Sequence record: NC_079181.1
DNA: 52,615 nucleotides
Origin: Escherichia phage vB_EcoP_Bp7
Direction: 5' to 3' (one strand)
Below, in pieces: positions 2,300 to 52,550 of this stretch (position 1 is its first letter; every line of letters begins with the position of its first letter). Under the pieces are notes generated by a model. It worked only from the letters and a program-made list of their open reading frames with translations. It was not told the origin of the DNA and searched no databases. A program made the position numbers and the translations under genes.

Positions 2300-3135
2300 G
2301 AAATATTCCGCATGTCATGTTGAATCATTCTAGAAACATTCAGCATGTCAGCTTTGAGTTACAGTGTTGTAATGATGTGGCAATCATTGAACTCCCTAGG
2401 TAGGCCACCTACAGTTCCAGCAACCATGACTTAGAGTAGGAATATCTATCCGAAACTTGTACTTCACCTATAGCATGTTCAATTGCGACAATATTGCTCC
2501 ATCTCCTATTATAAAGGCCCACCCACAAGCCGGGAGATAACTTTGGTAATATTGGAACTTTTGGACATGCTTCTTTCTTTCTACAAGAATTCGAAAGAAG
2601 AGAAGAAGTCGGACAAAGCATCTCGTTTGCACGCAGAAGCCGCCCCGATTTTGAGCAACAAATATTGTGACAATTGCGTCGCAGTATGGCATGTAAATAT
2701 TGCTACAAATTGGCATGTTGGAATGTGGCAGAATTGTTAGAGGACTAATCACCTCGAAGATACAATCGTCTACCAATCTGGCATGTTAATTTTGTAACAG
2801 TATTTGTGCCAATTTCGCATGTAGTATTTAACCCAATATTCTTGCAACCCGCATGAATACTGGCTTCCAGCCAAGCGAAGGCTTTATCATCGCATGTAAT
2901 ATTGTGACAATATTGGGATAAAACCCTTTATTTAAATCATTTAGTTTATTAATTAAATGGTCGGTTTTCTGTACATAGGTATTCAGCTGTTTGTGCCAAA
3001 TACAAACAAGTTGGCTGCTTCTACAGAACTCCAGTGCTATAAATGTTCGTGCCAATCTGCTGCAATTTATCTCATTTGGCGGGGTAATATTGTATTAGAT
3101 TGGCATGTCATTCTTTCGATTAGTTGCATGTGAAT
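2300..3135. repeat. non-coding array of degenerate repeats (core GCATGT about 12 times, palindrome CAATATTG about 5 times) with an AT-rich stretch
   Basis: Read directly, e.g. tggcatgtaaat, tggcatgttgg, tggcatgttaat, tcgcatgtagta, tcgcatgtaat, tggcatgtcatt, ttgcatgtgaat; AT-rich 2925-2990; no credible ORF. Confidence 0.6.
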
Positions 3136-3316
3136 AAGACCAAATCTCTGTAAATTCTGTGACAGATTTTAGAGAGATTATGTCTCCAAGCTAATCATTG
3201 CAGTTCTTCGGCACTTGCTGTGTCACATACTCCCTACAACTTTAAGGTGGATTGAGGTAAGACAAGACCTCCACAATCGTTCTGTAGGGAGTTTTCTTTT
3301 AACTTAGGAGAATAAA

Positions 3317-11107: not shown

Positions 11108-11342
11108 TTTAAATATTGCTGAACTTGAGGCTGGATTGATTGTTCACCACCAGCCTCGAAACACTTTCTATCGTATTCTTGGGCCTACAAAGATTAAAAC
11201 TCACTGCGGAAGTTGGGTGGATGGGTTTGCTTACCAAGAAGTGAAGAAGTACGGGGACCATACTTTCTTGAGTATTGATTCTTCTACTATCTACACACGA
11301 CCGAAAGAGCTGTTTGATTCAGACTGGAAGGTTCTGGGATAG
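11100..11342 (+). CDS. hypothetical protein (80 aa)
   Basis: ORF from the track. Confidence 0.45.
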   Translation: MRDLNIAELEAGLIVHHQPRNTFYRILGPTKIKTHCGSWVDGFAYQEVKKYGDHTFLSIDSSTIYTRPKELFDSDWKVLG

Positions 11343-11410
11343 TTCCAAGCTGTTCCGTCGAAGTGCCAAGCGGGTTTTGTGCTCGCATTGGCCTTCGGCT
11401 TTAGTCTGAA

Positions 11411-11429
11411 ACATTAGTGGGATTTGATT
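11411..11429 (+). promoter_or_regulatory. phage promoter-like motif P4 (acattagtgggatttgatt)
   Basis: Conserved motif, preceded by tctgaa as in P5 and P6. Confidence 0.5.
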
Positions 11430-11551
11430 CGGACCACTTAGGGAAGAAAGGCATTATACACTTATCGCCAAATGGGTGTCAAGCACTTTCTTCATTTATT
11501 TTAACTTATTCTTATTATTCTTTTTGTTTGGAATATTGGAATAATTCTGAA

Positions 11552-11570
11552 ACATTAGTTGGAATTGAAG
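11552..11570 (+). promoter_or_regulatory. phage promoter-like motif P5 (acattagttggaattgaag)
   Basis: Conserved motif; followed at 11590-11660 by a structured element. Confidence 0.55.
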
Positions 11571-11589
11571 AGACAACATCAGATAAGAG

Positions 11590-11660
11590 CTTTGTAACTA
11601 GGTAGTCCGTCTGGTACCAGGGCGTGTGAGAACGTTCGATTCGTTCTACAAAGTTCTTTT
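11590..11660 (+). ncRNA. promoter-proximal structured RNA candidate with a tRNA T-arm-like hairpin
   Basis: CTTTGTA (11590-11596) pairs with TACAAAG (11647-11653); inner GAACG-TTCGATT-CGTTC hairpin and palindrome CTGGTACCAG; followed by TTCTTTTCG. Confidence 0.35.
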
Positions 11661-12204
11661 CGATGGAATGTTTCCATCAAATACATTTATCTTTTAACAT
11701 AGGCCAAAGGGCCGGAATACTTCTTCGCAGAAAGCTGTTCACTTGTTATAGCGATGTATTGGGATGAATTGGTACTAAATAAGCAAGCTGTTAGGGCTGA
11801 ATAATTAGAGGGTTATGCCTCATGCTTATGTTAGTCATTCGAAAATAGGTTTGTGCCACAAGCTGCTGGTGCTCTGAGGAAGTCGGACAAACAGGGCTTA
11901 GAGTGGCATAATCCGCACAAAACCGCGCCACCAGCTATGCCAAAGCGGGTGGATTGGGTGAATGTATTGGGAAGGGTTGCAAAGCCTCTGTGACACGCCT
12001 GAGCCGCAAGGCGACGACACTCATGTGATTAGCGTATCGCACCCTAACGGGAGTAACCCTTCGCCAATGCAGTTATCCAGAATTGACACAAACGGTAGGC
12101 AGTGGCCCGATTTTCGGCCTTCCTGCGCTACCCTGTGGCCTGTTCCTGGGCCAAAAGATGAGAAGAGAAGTCACAAACACTGAATCGAAAATTGGAGAGT
12201 TCCT

Positions 12205-12525
12205 ATGATTCGCAAGCATTCTGCTAAAGTTTTGACGTTAAGAAACGTACTAATGTTTCCGTCGAGTGGGGAAGGAGAGGAAGAAACAATCCACTTCGTT
12301 CTCGTTGGCGGGCGTTGGTACTATAACGGCACCAATTCTTTCCACGTAAGTTTGTCGGAGAAAGATGGATTCTGGAAGCACACCTTTAAGGAGTTGCTTG
12401 AAAGCAGTGCCAACTACACCCCTGCCGAAGTTAAGAAATATTTCTACTGCGGCCCAAACAAGTCCATGCAAATCGCAACTCGCAATTGGACAACAAACCA
12501 ACCGATTTACGGAGTTCCATTTTGA
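12205..12525 (+). CDS. hypothetical protein (106 aa)
   Basis: ORF with GGAGAG 6 nt upstream. Confidence 0.5.
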   Translation: MIRKHSAKVLTLRNVLMFPSSGEGEEETIHFVLVGGRWYYNGTNSFHVSLSEKDGFWKHTFKELLESSANYTPAEVKKYFYCGPNKSMQIATRNWTTNQPIYGVPF

Positions 12526-12813: not shown

Positions 12814-13488
12814 ATGTCTTATCATGATGATGACAAAGAGATTGCACTATCAACGTGTAAGCAATGGCTCAATGATAATGATGCCGTCTATCTTGCCAAG
12901 GAAGATGTTATCATTATGTGGGTCCATTTTAATCCAGAATCGAAGCGCGGTGAGTGGCAACGCTACAAGATGAAAGAGGCTTGTCGCATAATTAAAGCCA
13001 CACGCGCTGGCTTCTCTGCTATGAAGTATATTAAGCCAGAGATGCTTATGCTTGCTGCACAGGAAGAAGAACGTGCGTATAAGCAAGCTGTTAAATCTCG
13101 TTCAACTGTTCCTCCAGAGTTCTTTAATTTGGAGCGCGCTGGACACTTCAACAATTTAGAAATGTTGACACTGTGCCTGTTGCAAGAATTAGTTGGAAGA
13201 GGACAAAACATTGAAGCTGTTTGTCTTGGAGAACTCATGAAAGAGTTGTTCTCGGCAAAGGGCTTTGCTGTGCCAAACCGAACTTTACGCTGGAAATTGT
13301 TGCGAGCAGTCGCGCAAGAAGCTGGTGTAGTTGTTCGTGACAGAACAAACCGACTCACTGTAACTGGAGTTGGGCGTTTTGTAGCAATCCAGATTGAGGG
13401 TTATGACGAATCAATCATCACTGAACTCACTGTCGCTGAGACAAAGGATTTAGTAAATAAAACACTAGAACGATTCAATAGATATTGA
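12814..13488 (+). CDS. hypothetical protein (224 aa)
   Basis: ATG at 12814 in frame with the 12757 track ORF, directly after the upstream stop. Confidence 0.55.
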   Translation: MSYHDDDKEIALSTCKQWLNDNDAVYLAKEDVIIMWVHFNPESKRGEWQRYKMKEACRIIKATRAGFSAMKYIKPEMLMLAAQEEERAYKQAVKSRSTVPPEFFNLERAGHFNNLEMLTLCLLQELVGRGQNIEAVCLGELMKELFSAKGFAVPNRTLRWKLLRAVAQEAGVVVRDRTNRLTVTGVGRFVAIQIEGYDESIITELTVAETKDLVNKTLERFNRY

Positions 13489-13950: not shown

Positions 13951-14319
13951 GTTGCCGATGGCAGACTTGAGAGACTAAGCTAAATCGATCTGGCATGCAC
14001 TGGAAGTTTTCCGGTGCTGCCTTGAACCCATTCCAGAGTGAGTGGGCTTCAATTTGTACATAATCCAAACACCATTGCATGAGCCTTCGACGGGAGGCAA
14101 TGTTGGGAAATTTGTTGTGTACAAATTGAAGTAGTTTTCTGAGTCTTACGACGGGCCTAAACTGCCTGAAGTTATTGCGACTGTTTTATTCATTTAAAAT
14201 AAATGCAAATGATTCTGAAATGCGAGTTGCGGCTTAATTAAATTTAAGTCTTCTCCGTGGTCTTCCAATCCCACGTAACCAAATTTGGCGCATTGTGGCT
14301 CCGAGATGTGATTAATAAA

Positions 14320-14527
14320 TCGGAGCAATAATTAATTTGTATTCTGCGATGCAATGCAGGCTTAAGTCCCTCAGTGCGCGTGGGGATGTGACAGAGTACA
14401 AACTTAATTATTAATTTGTATTCTGGTGTTGTTCGCCAAGATTGGTGCACTCATGATTGGTAGTGTTGGAGAGCGCGGAGCCTAAAATATTATCTGGCAT
14501 CTCCTACCAGAGTACAAACTTAATTAT
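14320..14527. repeat. cluster of direct and inverted repeats in a non-coding island
   Basis: cagagtacaaacttaatta occurs twice (around 14390 and 14505); aattaatttgtattctg occurs twice; together they form an imperfect palindrome at 14393-14426. Confidence 0.55.
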
Positions 14528-14968
14528 GCAGTTGGATATTTCTAGAGGACGGACGAGCACACTGGAATGTCTTCAATTGGTTTAGTGTGAGAAGCTATGC
14601 CAATATGAAACGTAACTCCTTGGGGAAGTGCTCCTCTGGATTTCCCTCCACACAGGAATCTCAAGCCTGTGGCAGCGACTTCGAAGCTGCACTGCGTAAC
14701 CTAAATTCACCCTAAAGTGAGTTGCCCTGAGTATGGAAATAAACTGCTCATAACCGATGGTATCTACAAAGGTAGATTAAATCAGGTTGCCTGTTGGTAC
14801 TTGGGTTCAACACCTGCTTGCACTCGCAAAGTAGTGCCTCGTACCTGAGATGAAGTGAGTCGGGACCATCAATCCCACGTTATGTCAAAACGCAGTAGGC
14901 GGCTCACAGATTCTACAAGCCTCGCAGTTCGGGAAAACCTGCGTTATCAAAACCCCCTCTTATTCTTT

Positions 14969-15061
14969 GGACGAGTAGCTCAGAAGGTCTGCTCCAGAGC
15001 TTAGTCAGGTAGAGCAATCTGTTAGGCAGATGTGTCGTTGGTTCGAATCCAACCTCGTCCA
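14969..15061 (+). tRNA. atypical 93-nt tRNA-like gene (isotype unresolved, possibly Leu)
   Basis: Perfect 7-bp acceptor stem (GGACGAG / CTCGTCC) and canonical T-arm (GTTGG-TTCGAAT-CCAAC), but about 20 extra nt in the D-arm region; candidate anticodons UAG or CAG depending on the fold. Confidence 0.45.
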
Positions 15062-15093
15062 CCCACTTTAATAACCGCAATACTGGAGTCCTT

Positions 15094-15612: not shown

Positions 15613-16555
15613 GTGAACAAGACGGACGTCTATAACTTCCCACATGGCCTAGCTAGTTGGTGGTGTAAAAGACTGACCAAGGTGACGACAGCCAAAGTCG
15701 AGGGAGTGCGCGACTTTAAATAACGAGACTCTAGCAACTTGTTGCGATGATGGTGTAAGCCCATGCGTTTGGAAGCAGGACTCCAACTCAAACAAACCTG
15801 CAAGTTGCTCTGGGCATAACAATTAAAATTGCTGCCTCGCATTGAACGCGAGAAAGTTCAGGTAGTCACTTCCTAGAACAGTGGCCGGGAACACACCTAG
15901 ACAAAAGTGCTTGAGAACGTTAGCTCTGTCTTGCCAGCATTAATGGCACGTTGGCCGCGTAAAGGCCACAGCGTCTGACCAACGTATCGGTCGCCAAATT
16001 CAATGGATTCGTAGAGTTAATTAAACCTGCACGATGGGATGGGGATGTAGCATCCGAGGCCGACTGTGTAATTGTGAACTTCGCGTTCACCGAATCCGCC
16101 AAATCCATGGGCTAGTGCAAATGTCAGTCACTAGAAGATGTGTTGCAAAACGTCTTCCATGATGTGCAAAGTGTCAGTCACGTGCCCGCCACTTTACCTC
16201 CAACAGTTATGCCTCTGTTCAAAAGGCTCAAGAGAGCGTCTGGCATACCGTAGCGATACGGCTTAGTTGCGCTGATTGTGTTGTGCAGAAAGAAAGTTCA
16301 GGCTTTCGTTTGGGTTACTCCTCATCCCGAAGTTAGCTGGATTCAAAATCCAGACTATGTTCCTATACACATGAAATATGCAAGTCGAGGGTTCTTAATG
16401 TTCAAACATGATGCGAGCATTAAGCGGGTTTATACTTTTCCCCGATGGTCCCCATAAACAAGGCTGATTCACTTGGGCGGTTCGAATCAAATTTAATAAG
16501 TGTTTTGTAACAGTTCACGTCAGGACACTTACTTAAATTTTAACTGGAGAGAAAC

Positions 16556-50850: not shown

Positions 50851-51950
50851 TGGCTTACACTACCTTTTCACAAACCAAGAATAACCAACTACTAGAGCCA
50901 ATGTTCTTTGGTCAGAACGTTAACGTTGCTCGATATGACCAACAGAAGTATAGCATCTTCGAGAAGTTAATCGAAAAGCAGTTATCTTTCTTTTGGCGAC
51001 CTGAAGAGGTTGATGTTAGTCAAGACCGAATTGACTATGCTGGTCTTCCTGAATGCGAGAAGCACATCTTCACCAGCAATTTACGATACCAAATCCTGCT
51101 TGATTCCATTCAGGGACGTGGACCAACCACAGTTTTGCTACCAATTGTGAGCATTCCTGAGCTGGAAACCTGGATTGAAACTTGGTCATTCTCAGAGACA
51201 ATTCACTCCCGTTCTTACACGCATATTATTCGTAATATTGTCACAGACCCAAGTGTAATTTTCGACGAAATTGTGGAGAATGAGCACATTAAAATGCGTG
51301 CAATTGGCATCTCCCAATATTATGACGAGCTTCAACATCTAACTTCCATGTGGCATCTGCATGAAGATGAAGTAGACCTTCGTGAGCTTAAGAAGAAGCT
51401 GTATTTATGCCTCATGTCCATTAATGCACTAGAAGCAATCCGCTTTTATGTCAGTTTTGCTTGCTCATTTGCCTTCGCTGAACGCAAGTTGATGGAAGGG
51501 AATGCCAAGATTATTCGCTTAATTGCTCGTGATGAAGCACTCCATTTGACCGGAACTCAACACATGCTGAACCTTCTTGCAAGCGGTGTTGATGACCCAG
51601 AAATGGCAGAAATTGCTAAAGAATGCCGTCAAGAATGCCAACTAATGTTCGAAAATGTAGCCCAACAAGAGAAAGATTGGGCTGATTATTTGTTCAAAGA
51701 TGGCTCAATGATTGGCCTAAACAAGCAAATTCTGTGCGGATATGTGGAATATATCACGAATATTCGTATGCAAGCAGTTGGATTAGATGCTCCATTCAAA
51801 GGTGCTACTAACCCGATTCCTTGGATTAACGCATGGCTGAATTCGGATGCTGTACAGGTTGCTCCACAAGAAACGGAAATTAGTTCGTACCTTGTCGGGC
51901 AGATTGATTCCGAAGTGGACACCAATGCTCTGGGCGGATTTGAGCTGTAA
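50850..51950 (+). CDS. nrdB: class Ia ribonucleotide reductase beta subunit, host-like
   Basis: Near-identical over most of its length to remembered E. coli NrdB ([11 protein letters not shown]..., [40 protein letters not shown]-terminal [14 protein letters not shown]). Confidence 0.92.
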
Positions 51951-52092
51951 CGATTATATGTGAGAAGAGATTCGATGCGTTAGCGTCGTTTCTCTTTGAG
52001 CTAGAATAAGACAAGTAAATTAAATATTTATTTATTCCCAATATTGCTACAATATTAAGAGTAGTATTAGGAATGCGTAAAGTTAAATGGTA

Positions 52093-52149
52093 CATGGTCG
52101 GTCAACTGTATCTGGATAGTAATTCGTTCATGGTCGGTCAGCTGTATCT
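52093..52149. repeat. two 21-bp direct repeats (catggtcggtcaRctgtatct)
   Basis: Copies at 52093-52113 and 52129-52149. Confidence 0.7.
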
Positions 52150-52208
52150 CCTTCGGAGAAGTTATCTCGCCGAAATTTGTTCGAATGGAAAACCGACTAT
52201 TAAATAAA

Positions 52209-52233
52209 TTTTTTTTTTTTTTTTTTTTTTTTT
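52209..52233. repeat. 25-nt poly(T) homopolymer
   Basis: Uninterrupted T run preceded by TAAATAAA. Confidence 0.9.
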
Positions 52234-52330
52234 CAATATTGCTACAGAATTAATGAGACTCAAATTGTTTCAATATTATCGAGACTCGAATTGTTACGAT
52301 ATTAATGAGACTAGAATTGTGGCAATTGCT
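52234..52330. repeat. three tandem degenerate ~30-bp repeats (core atattaNNgagactNNaattgt)
   Basis: attaatgagactcaaattgtt / attatcgagactcgaattgtt / attaatgagactagaattgtg. Confidence 0.65.
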
Positions 52331-52531: not shown

Positions 52532-52550
52532 ATATTAGTTGGACGTGAAT
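52532..52550 (+). promoter_or_regulatory. phage promoter-like motif P8 (atattagttggacgtgaat), upstream of the RNAP gene if circular
   Basis: Conserved motif about 65 bp before the window end; RNAP ATG is at base 1. Confidence 0.5.

Follow-up and report, generated by a model that had tools for sequence, protein, structure and literature searches.

Why would a phage keep about 860 bases that carry two of its own promoters and no plausible gene? We asked this of an island at positions 11343–12204 of Escherichia phage vB_EcoP_Bp7 (NC_079181.1; the whole stretch analyzed, 52,615 nucleotides, is hereafter the window), which ends at the start codon of a gene at 12205. The window comes from a phiEcoM-GJ1-like phage (Carltongylesvirus, Chaseviridae) that encodes a T7-type RNA polymerase and carries all of its genes in rightward orientation. 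Chaseviridae are candidates for biocontrol and therapy, and in their genomes this region of ~1 kb is annotated as nothing or as spurious tiny open reading frames (ORFs). An initial annotation of the window had described the island as non-coding, with two promoter motifs (P4 and P5), a short structured RNA behind P5 and a GC-rich remainder. Here, we compare the island with its homologues in related phages. It is the most conserved sequence of its neighborhood, its shape is kept by compensatory evolution, and it very probably encodes a structured RNA on the sense strand. On balance, we lean toward reading the island as a conserved non-coding control and RNA locus that opens a new transcription unit.

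A conserved, structured RNA downstream of P5

A 1.6-kb query around the island matched 49 phage records, 42 of them covering at least 80% of the query, and every record that we opened among these matches belonged to the phiEcoM-GJ1 group of Chaseviridae (Carltongylesvirus and close relatives). Identity to the window, given throughout as the mean over 20 Carltongylesvirus loci, was 81–82% in two upstream coding segments and 70% in the downstream gene. The ~640 nt of sense-strand sequence past P5 (~11566–12204) is non-coding and conserved above these flanking genes. We divided most of it into a core, domain A (97% identity), followed by domain B (94%), domain C (88%), and domain D with a 3′ tail (96%; Table 1). 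The segment between P4 and P5 is 93% identical, and a small cassette directly after P5, described below, 73%. The stretch is indeed GC-rich, as first described (0.50–0.535 GC over 11800–12200 vs. 0.44 for the genome); the ~550 bp that had been taken as a mere GC-rich remainder turned out to be the best conserved and most structured part of the island (88–97% vs. 70–82% in the flanks).

We aligned 25 sequences, 22 of them from close relatives, from the hairpin at 11662 to the ATG at 12205 and predicted their common fold with RNAalifold, which returned 122 pairs. At these pairs 96.4% of alignment cells were paired, a percentage inflated because the structure was predicted on the same alignment. 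Compensatory change was found at 45 pairs, compared with 10.2±2.2 in shuffles (a control that ignores phylogeny) and 7–18 when the partners were slid by 1–3 columns. The structure is specific to one strand, with 422 G·U cells vs. 24 A·C cells, a contrast that is inflated for the same reason and in part follows from having predicted the fold on the + strand. The fold energy was 28 kcal/mol better on the + strand (−210.7 kcal/mol) than on the − strand (−182.6 kcal/mol). Variation is concentrated in hairpins whose two arms change jointly, some of them exchanged wholesale.

Short blastn matches to domain A alone gave the first pointer to other genera. A covariance model of this domain (R1) found exactly one copy in each of the 24 sources searched, with scores of 49–156 bits; the sources include Sabourvirus 4HA13, Myducvirus Myduc, Loessnervirus Y2 and SSEM1, Aeromonas phiA050, phiEcoM-GJ1 and four uncultured contigs. 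Domain A therefore ranges over four named genera (Carltongylesvirus, Sabourvirus, Myducvirus and Loessnervirus), the unclassified Aeromonas phage phiA050 and uncultured contigs. In an alignment fitted to R1 (A3), 90% of cells were paired, a percentage inflated by that fitting, and slid controls reached 35–41%; 20 of 33 pairs were compensatory, a number that none of 500 shuffles matched. The closing stem (...ACUAAAUAAGCA / UGCUUAUGUUAGU...) occurs as AUAAGCA/UGCUUAU, AUAACGA/UCGUUAU, GUAACCA/UGGUUAC, AUAGGCA/UGUCUAU and CCAUAAUGA/UCAUUAUGG, and surrounds the near-invariant hairpin AGCUGUUAGGGCU, the junction GAAUAAUU (GA(A)UAAUU) and a variable hairpin. Loci with only the 16-nt seed scored 17–25 bits on R1, and we discarded the 16-mer matches in metagenomes and viromes, which were mostly coding-sequence coincidences in that same range of 17–25 bits.

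The other parts of the large RNA covary as well. The hairpin at 11662–11678 has counterparts in other genera (GAUAGC..GCUAUC in Y2 and GAUGGC..GCCAUC in UViG_3300014912); its 5′ GAUG competes with the outer stem described below, and its GGAAUGUUUCCA is predicted to be able to pair also with the Shine-Dalgarno region at 12193–12203. Five of the six pairs of helix 10 in domain B are compensatory; in 4HA13 and OGVR01001782 the place of B is taken by a larger domain of another kind. Helix 12 of domain C comprises 26 pairs, 97% paired and 11 compensatory, and is capped by apical hairpins that are exchanged wholesale between close relatives. Compensatory change also affects helices 15 (3/5 pairs) and 16 (4/6) of domain D, where the single-stranded CAAACG is the same in 25/25 sequences. 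The 3′ tail stays with the RNA, and not with the 106-amino-acid (aa) gene, in relatives that have an extra ORF of 67–69 aa. This ORF (phrog_21299; L105:8952–9154 and homologues, GJ1 gp25) lies between the RNA and the 106-aa gene in about one third of relatives and is absent from the window; at the insertion, the bases around the start codon are duplicated.

A miniature cloverleaf enclosed by a long stem

Directly after P5, the initial annotation had outlined a 7-bp stem (CTTTGTA 11590–11596/TACAAAG 11647–11653) around a palindrome (CTGGTACCAG, 11611–11620) and a T-arm-like hairpin (11630–11646), with a U-rich tract behind them. The stem, the palindrome and the hairpin are all found at the positions given, and they fold into a miniature cloverleaf. 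Its D-like hairpin has 2–3 bp and a 4-nt UAGU loop; its anticodon-like arm has a 4-bp stem and the 7-nt loop GGUACCA, and is followed by a GUGUGA linker; its T arm, GAACG-UUCGAUU-CGUUC, has a canonical loop. The 7-bp stem extends outward, CAUC-A-GAUAAGAG-CUUUGUA pairing with UACAAAG-UUCUUUUC-GAUG over ~19 bp. Within this outer stem the U-rich tract UUCUUUUC (11654–11661) pairs with AGAUAAGAG (11581–11589), with compensatory change in 4HA13 and in the type-2 cassettes. The tract is a helix strand and therefore not the free tail of a terminator, as it had first appeared, and a terminator scan of the region returned one chance-level site vs. 1.8 expected. Thus, the small RNA proposed after P5 stands as a conserved, covariation-supported, tRNA-like structure, and its layout as a short, terminator-ended transcript falls: no terminator follows the hairpins, and the element is enclosed by the long stem of a longer transcript.

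The support comes from an alignment of cassette and outer stem (A4) that contains 12 distinct versions. In it 95.8% of cells were paired, compared with 37–52% in slid controls, and 10 of 30 pairs were compensatory, a count reached in 0/500 shuffles. The acceptor-like stem changes from CU..AG to UC..GA in 4HA13, a C-G pair of the T stem becomes U-A among versions, and the anticodon-like stem occurs as GUCU/AGAC, GUCU/GGGC and GUUA/UAAC. Long stems lie at the same place in 4HA13 (20 bp) and phiA050 (23 bp). We regard the outer stem, at 11577–11665, as a candidate processing stem.

Probable tRNA ancestry and turnover of the cassette

ARAGORN found no tRNA gene in the window and nothing at this site in 21+12 related loci except OGVR01001782, and the Rfam tRNA model (RF00005) gave no match at E≤10 over 11200–12400. 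In OGVR01001782, a metagenomic relative, the slot between homologous flanks (AAGAACUUUGUA...CAAAGUUCU) holds a 78-nt element that scores 49.3 bits on the Rfam tRNA model (cut-off 29) and receives a tRNA call from ARAGORN, with a 6-nt anticodon loop. A tRNA within homologous flanks indicates that the slot is a tRNA slot and the window element a shrunken derivative; we consider it likely that the cassette is tRNA-derived.

The slot holds at least six kinds of content across relatives. BSBP01, PYps23T/MLP1 and UViG_3300047563 each have a fold of their own there, T-loop included; Pel53 has an unrelated fold, and Aeromonas phiA050 a compact pseudoknot that we call module X. The Pel53 record (PP952070.1, locus L021) is named 'Staphylococcus phage Pel53' and labeled with the host Staphylococcus hyicus; it is ~90% identical to the coliphages of the genus across the region, and the host label looks doubtful.

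In many relatives P5 is present twice, and the two copies flank an additional promoter-led unit: module X in a long stem of its own, or an ORF of 59 aa with the pattern CxxC...CPVC. The predicted fold of module X is a compact pseudoknot (GGAGUCCAC - hairpin - CC..A-rich..CCAAGUCUGGACAACUUGG); no Rfam family matches it, and the window lacks it. Many Carltongylesvirus genomes carry it as a separate promoter-led unit within a 15–17-bp stem, and it is inserted in Pantoea SSEM1 relative to Erwinia Y2. The ORF-bearing unit (L006:868–1044, with homologues at L010, L013, L020 and L021) is 180 bp long, promoter-led, and encodes a protein of 58–59 aa, CxxC...CPVC (phrog_2834, function unknown); in some relatives it lies between P5 and the second P5 copy.

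Promoters and an AT-rich segment in the upstream half

P4 and P5 are, as first proposed, genuine phage promoters by motif statistics and by annotation. Their common 23-nt motif has four copies in the window, compared with none expected from shuffles, and the 11-nt core CATTAGTKGGA has 13 matches (11 of them on the + strand), compared with 1.9 expected; the phiEcoM-GJ1 record lists the two sites as putative promoters 4 and 5. They lie 141 bp apart and point rightward, after a terminator-like hairpin whose homologous site in SA91KD is annotated as a rho-independent terminator. By analogy with T7-type promoters, the P5 transcript probably starts at ~11563–11566.

The transcript from P4 would contain a predicted hairpin (11443–11493) followed by a U-rich run, which might be a short RNA made from P4 or might act as an attenuator or primer. 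If there is a discrete hairpin-plus-U-run RNA here, it is more likely a product of P4 than the element after P5. In the loop of this hairpin, between P4 and P5, sits a consensus sigma-70 promoter on the opposite strand. The same TTGACA-18-TATAAT occurs in 4HA13, Aeromonas phiA050, Proteus Myduc and OGVR01001782; in Loessnervirus the two hexamers are separated by only 8 nt. An AT-rich stretch follows and ends in a tandem repeat, TGGAATATTGGAATAAT (11529–11545), adjoining P5. Relatives, other genera included, have GGAATA/TATTCC repeats at the same place; in the window alone, the 9-mer count of the GGAATA repeat is not above chance. The P4 and AT-rich segment is most simply read as a T7-type origin or a regulatory region. 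The most AT-rich 60-mer of the genome (52196–52255, 11.7% GC) lies near its right end, with promoter-like cores nearby at 51637–51647 (minus strand) and 52533–52543.

Table 1. Coordinates of the features of the island and of module X in relatives
Feature	Position	Strand	Evidence and remarks
Terminator-like hairpin	11357-11399	+	Minimum free energy -30.4 kcal/mol, z -4.4; UUUAGU after; closes upstream operon (ArdA-like / 80-aa gene)
Phage RNA polymerase promoter P4 (TCTGAAACATTAGTGGGATTTGA)	core 11405-11427	+	Motif counts; annotated promoter 4 in EF460875 (phiEcoM-GJ1)
Hairpin in P4 transcript (GAAGAAAGGC...GC.CUUUCUUC), then U-rich run	11443-11493	+	Fold of 11424-11552: -31.3 kcal/mol, z -3.9
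Consensus sigma-70 promoter TTGACA-18 nt-TATAAT	11453-11482	-	12/12 matches; leftward, antisense to every gene
AT-rich stretch, 16.7% GC	11487-11546	.	Second lowest-GC 60-mer of the 52.6-kb window
Phage RNA polymerase promoter P5 (TCTGAAACATTAGTTGGAATTGA)	core 11546-11568	+	Motif counts; annotated promoter 5 in EF460875 (phiEcoM-GJ1)
Outer stem, ~19 bp (CAUC..AGAUAAGAGCUUUGUA / UACAAAGUUCUUUUC..GAUG), around cassette slot	11577-11665	+	A4 helix 1: 19 pairs, 95% paired, 7 compensatory
Miniature cloverleaf, 64 nt	11590-11653	+	7-bp acceptor-like stem, D-like hairpin, 4-bp stem, T arm
Invariant hairpin GAUGGAAUGUUUCCAUC	11662-11678	+	25 sequences, sole change A to G (gives G·U pair)
Small hairpin GGCC-AAAG-GGCC	11702-11713	+	Helix 2: 3/4 pairs compensatory
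Domain A, core three-way junction	11753-11851	+	R1 covariance model; A3 covariation
Domain B	11852-11910	+	Stacked helices UGUGCCAC/GUGGCAUA, AAGCUGCUGG/..CAGGGCUU; hairpin with G(G/A)AAG loop; helices 8-10
Domain C	11954-12080	+	26-bp irregular long stem (UUGGGUGAAUGUAUUGGGAAGGGUUGC / GUAACCCUUCGCCAAUGCAGUUAUCCAG); hypervariable apical hairpins ~11993-12040
Domain D	12088-12153	+	Single-stranded CAAACG; hairpin GGUAG..GGCCCGAUUUUCGGCC..CUACC; hairpin GGCC-UGUUCCUG-GGCC
3′ tail GUCACAAAC ... AAUUGGAGAGUUCCU	12170-12204	+	Shine-Dalgarno GGAG 12194-12197; adjoins ATG 12205
Module X sites (relatives)	L055:~895-1030 (oriented), L105:8161-8298, L074:107-238, L023:1248-1352, L026:~1244-1330

Database searches and discarded candidates

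No Rfam family was found at the locus, whether the whole window was searched at the gathering score, the region at E≤10 or 12 relatives at E≤1; the only hits there were chance hits. The covariance models of ROOL and GOLLD likewise gave no match in the window (E≤10) or in the 12 relatives (E≤1). A blastn search of 5,426 E. coli genomes returned no match to the island, and the core motif had a single chance hit, unscored by R1, in 185,579 bacterial and archaeal species genomes (a Bacillota metagenome-assembled genome). The literature that we searched on phiEcoM-GJ1 and Carltongylesvirus, a search that did not extend to the original GJ1 paper, contained no description of the region. With no catalogued family matching, the large RNA and its core are a candidate new RNA family.

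Two ideas about domain A were set aside. A tertiary contact between its loop UUAGGG and CCCUAA at 12043–12048 was dropped because the complement is not kept in 4HA13, OGVR01001782 and phiA050. The phage also has a 95-nt tRNA-like gene (14968–15063), and CUGUUAGG is common to its anticodon arm and the domain A hairpin, which might have pointed to anticodon mimicry; a relative whose tRNA has anticodon CAG keeps the loop, and phages without the tRNA keep domain A. The match may be a coincidence.

The tRNA-like gene itself has ~25 extra bases in the D-arm region, receives no call from ARAGORN and matches the Rfam tRNA model in part (14998–15053, 27 bits vs. a cut-off of 29); papers on relatives list a 95-bp 'tRNA-Arg' or a tRNA-Leu there. 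It is preceded by a stretch (13979–15012) with repeated GAGTACAAACTTAATTAT / AATTAATTTGTATTCTG units, one of four on the + strand, 360–1030 nt long, that lack any stop-free frame of at least 70 codons (the others are 2741–3307, 15613–16543 and 51951–52314). Further non-coding RNAs could lie in these stretches. A match to ColE1-type RNAI (13188–13289; 62.9 bits vs. a cut-off of 47) sits ~3.6 kb upstream of domain A on an uncultured, Chaseviridae-like contig of 53 kb (IMGVR_UViG_3300014912_000001, L037); capture of a plasmid fragment or a chimeric assembly could explain it.

A working model and its rivals

We propose that the phage RNA polymerase would transcribe the locus from P5 in the middle phase of infection, and that host nucleases that act on double-stranded RNA or process tRNAs (such as RNase III and RNase P) would cut the 19–23-bp stem, releasing a small tRNA-like RNA and leaving the large folded RNA. 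Processing of the transcript into stable RNAs is our best inference; for excision of the cassette in particular we see an even chance. The large RNA would be recognized by a protein or another RNA, since its invariant loops and junctions exceed the needs of a passive leader, and the downstream message would begin with it. The cassette, which varies, would be a rapidly evolving accessory that may serve as a decoy for host factors directed at tRNAs. We propose only tentatively, with somewhat less than an even chance, that the large RNA does more than control the next gene in cis. The boldest version, in which the ~450–540-nt RNA is a new class of large ornate phage RNA, comparable in function to ROOL or GOLLD and acting in trans with the adjacent, quickly exchanged tRNA-like and pseudoknot cassettes, we consider unlikely. 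If true, domain A would be the universally conserved recognition core of a trans-acting RNA. The locus might then be an RNA device for capturing, mimicking or protecting tRNAs or the host factors that bind them, either in host takeover or against tRNA-targeting defense.

Several observations weigh against this model. What we call one large RNA may be several modules, because a phage promoter lies between domain A and the 3′ domains in Loessnervirus (Y2 and SSEM1) and one uncultured contig, and a gene does so in Myduc. In phiEcoM-GJ1, a viable phage, domains B–C are replaced by an endonuclease-like ORF of 133 aa, so these domains are dispensable or replaceable; a variant of domain A and the 3′ domain are retained. 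That ORF (L001:2274–2858), annotated as 'putative exonuclease SbcC', matches phage endonuclease/HNH families (phrog_2340, E=9e-10); it resembles an insertion of the homing-endonuclease type in a conserved RNA gene. Most of the compensatory change in the 25-sequence alignment stems from few lineages (4HA13, phiA050 and two uncultured contigs), since 22 of the 25 sequences are close relatives; moreover, the structure tested was predicted from the very alignment tested, and the A3 alignment was made by fitting to R1. Both the use of P5 and the processing of its transcript are inferred. Finally, there is no terminator between the RNA and the gene at 12205, whose Shine-Dalgarno sequence lies in the conserved 3′ tail; transcripts are therefore likely to read through into that gene, and a purely cis-acting leader would account for the layout equally well.

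Such a leader is the main rival. The whole P5 transcript could be a long cis-acting 5′ leader of the downstream operon, its stem an RNase III-type processing site resembling those behind T7 promoters, and its folded RNA a stabilizer of the message that gates translation through a helix between 12193–12203 and 11665–11676. In its favor, the RNA always adjoins the ribosome-binding site with no terminator before 12205, the UUGGAGAGUUCCU tail keeps to the RNA rather than to the 106-aa gene when an ORF is inserted, and the 19–23-bp stems have the size of RNase III substrates. GGAAUGUUUCCA is complementary over 11–12 bp to UGGAGA(C)(A/G)UUCC in Carltongylesvirus, 4HA13, phiA050 and OGVR01001782, but this long-range helix shows no change on both sides, and the complementarity may be incidental because both partners are near-palindromes on GGAA/UUCC. 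The local hairpin at 11662–11678, in contrast, covaries across genera, and in UViG_3300047563, where the 3′ end differs, only ~5 bp of the Shine-Dalgarno pairing are left. We keep the long-range helix only within this rival, as it is predicted without covariation. Furthermore, domain A is retained across genera in which the genes that follow it are unrelated, with a promoter or a gene separating the 3′ domains from it, and ~450 nt with invariant loops far exceed what stabilization or masking of a Shine-Dalgarno sequence would need. We consider a leader and nothing more possible but rather unlikely. A less probable rival, with a small chance in our estimate, is that the island is chiefly a T7-type replication origin. 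Its tandem promoters would fire into an AT-rich segment that melts easily, the transcript would prime DNA synthesis, the folded RNA past P5 would act as a structured primer or an RNA of the origin, as RNA II does in ColE1, and the antisense host promoter would aid opening. Tandem phage promoters 141 bp apart directly past a terminator, the second most AT-rich 60-mer (11487–11546), conserved iteron-like GGAATA repeats, the conserved perfect sigma-70 promoter on the opposite strand and a place ahead of a new gene block, which parallels T7 phi1.1A/phi1.1B, all suit an origin. The cumulative GC skew, however, has no switch at the site, and the repeat count is not significant in the window alone. 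Because the AT-rich segment lies upstream of P5, it explains P4 but leaves the ~640-nt structured RNA unaccounted for; an elaborate RNA fold is not required at T7-type origins; and, in contrast to ColE1 RNA I and RNA II, there is no overlap between the antisense promoter and the P5 RNA.

We give the remaining two rivals next to no weight. One is that small proteins have been missed, such as a 73-aa ORF at 11962–12183 or a 46-aa ORF at 11853–11993; ORFs of 30–73 codons do exist, and some pipelines annotate them in several relatives. Among the 22 close relatives, however, the 73-aa ORF is intact in six, the rest having 1–2-nt indels and early stops, and the 46-aa ORF, likewise broken by indels and stops in most of them, in eight. 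Variable columns fall on the three codon positions as 32/26/31, with no third-position bias, in the former and as 7/12/9 in the latter, and the variation is concentrated in hairpins that exchange both arms together. The ORFs annotated are inconsistent between genomes (30–70 codons, or none), and the 73-aa product has no PHROG or Pfam match. These results bear out the earlier judgment that the island is non-coding, that its 73-aa ORF is implausible and that no plausible gene precedes 12205. The other is that the island is decaying debris, a dead tRNA gene with remnants of mobile cassettes. This would fit a truncated tRNA-like element rejected by tRNA finders in an insertion hotspot (promoter-led cassettes, the GJ1 endonuclease ORF, the extra small ORF), but not conservation above that of the neighboring genes, pairing upheld by compensatory change, or the persistence of domain A in four named genera whose DNA is otherwise barely alignable at the locus.

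The structured-RNA reading has practical consequences. Annotators gain a concrete model for removing false ORF calls in Chaseviridae genomes. With an E. coli host, T7-type promoters, natural cassette variants and a natural replacement of domains B–C (GJ1), the phages also offer a tractable system, in which the purpose of large phage RNAs and of degenerate tRNAs could be studied.

Comparison with known systems

The cassette resembles a tRNA in its 7-bp acceptor-like stem, its four-arm layout and its T arm. A T-loop is recognized by T54 Psi55 C56 R57 A58, closed by G53-C61; the window element has a 5-bp T stem, the 7-nt loop UUCGAUU and the canonical G-C closing pair. A full tRNA also has a D arm of 3–4 bp with G18 G19, a 5-bp anticodon stem, U33, a purine at 37 and U8. 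The window element, in contrast, has 64 nt rather than 74–95, a D arm that is a 2–3-bp hairpin with a 4-nt loop, a 4-bp anticodon-like stem with G where U33 is expected, and A at position 8. It has no CCA, the UUCU after the stem is base-paired, and the acceptor stem runs on for ~12 more base pairs. Plant-virus tRNA-like structures are a kindred case. So is mascRNA, which is cut from MALAT1: the window element too sits in a longer transcript and could mark a processing site.

For the arrangement of the locus, the closest parallel is the phi1.1A/phi1.1B region of T7, which combines the primary origin with the R1.1 RNase III site, a simple hairpin of ~60 nt. The window likewise has two tandem promoters for a single-subunit polymerase past the end of an earlier transcription unit, an AT-rich segment after the first promoter, as in the layout of a T7-type origin, and, as at R1.1, a long stem (~two helical turns) in the leader soon after the promoter. 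T7, however, has no tRNA-like cassette, no conserved fold of ~450 nt and no antisense consensus sigma-70 promoter at that place, and in the window phage cleavage and replication initiation are putative. ColE1 RNA II/RNA I offers another likeness, a structured RNA of ~550 nt beside a candidate origin with an opposite host promoter nearby. Here, though, the antisense promoter lies upstream of P5, so that its product would not be complementary to the structured RNA, and there is no sequence or model similarity at the window locus.

ROOL and GOLLD, both Rfam families, are large ornate RNAs of phages and prophages. Like them, the window RNA is several hundred nucleotides long and multi-domain: its stems covary, its junctions are invariant, and its peripheral hairpins vary. 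It is also encoded by a phage, beside tRNA or tRNA-like genes. It differs from them in belonging to Chaseviridae, which infect Gram-negative hosts, in having a T7-type promoter and in leading directly into a ribosome-binding site. The candidate family would thus add to the short list of large structured phage RNAs one that pairs a universal ~100-nt core with a tRNA-derived cassette partner.

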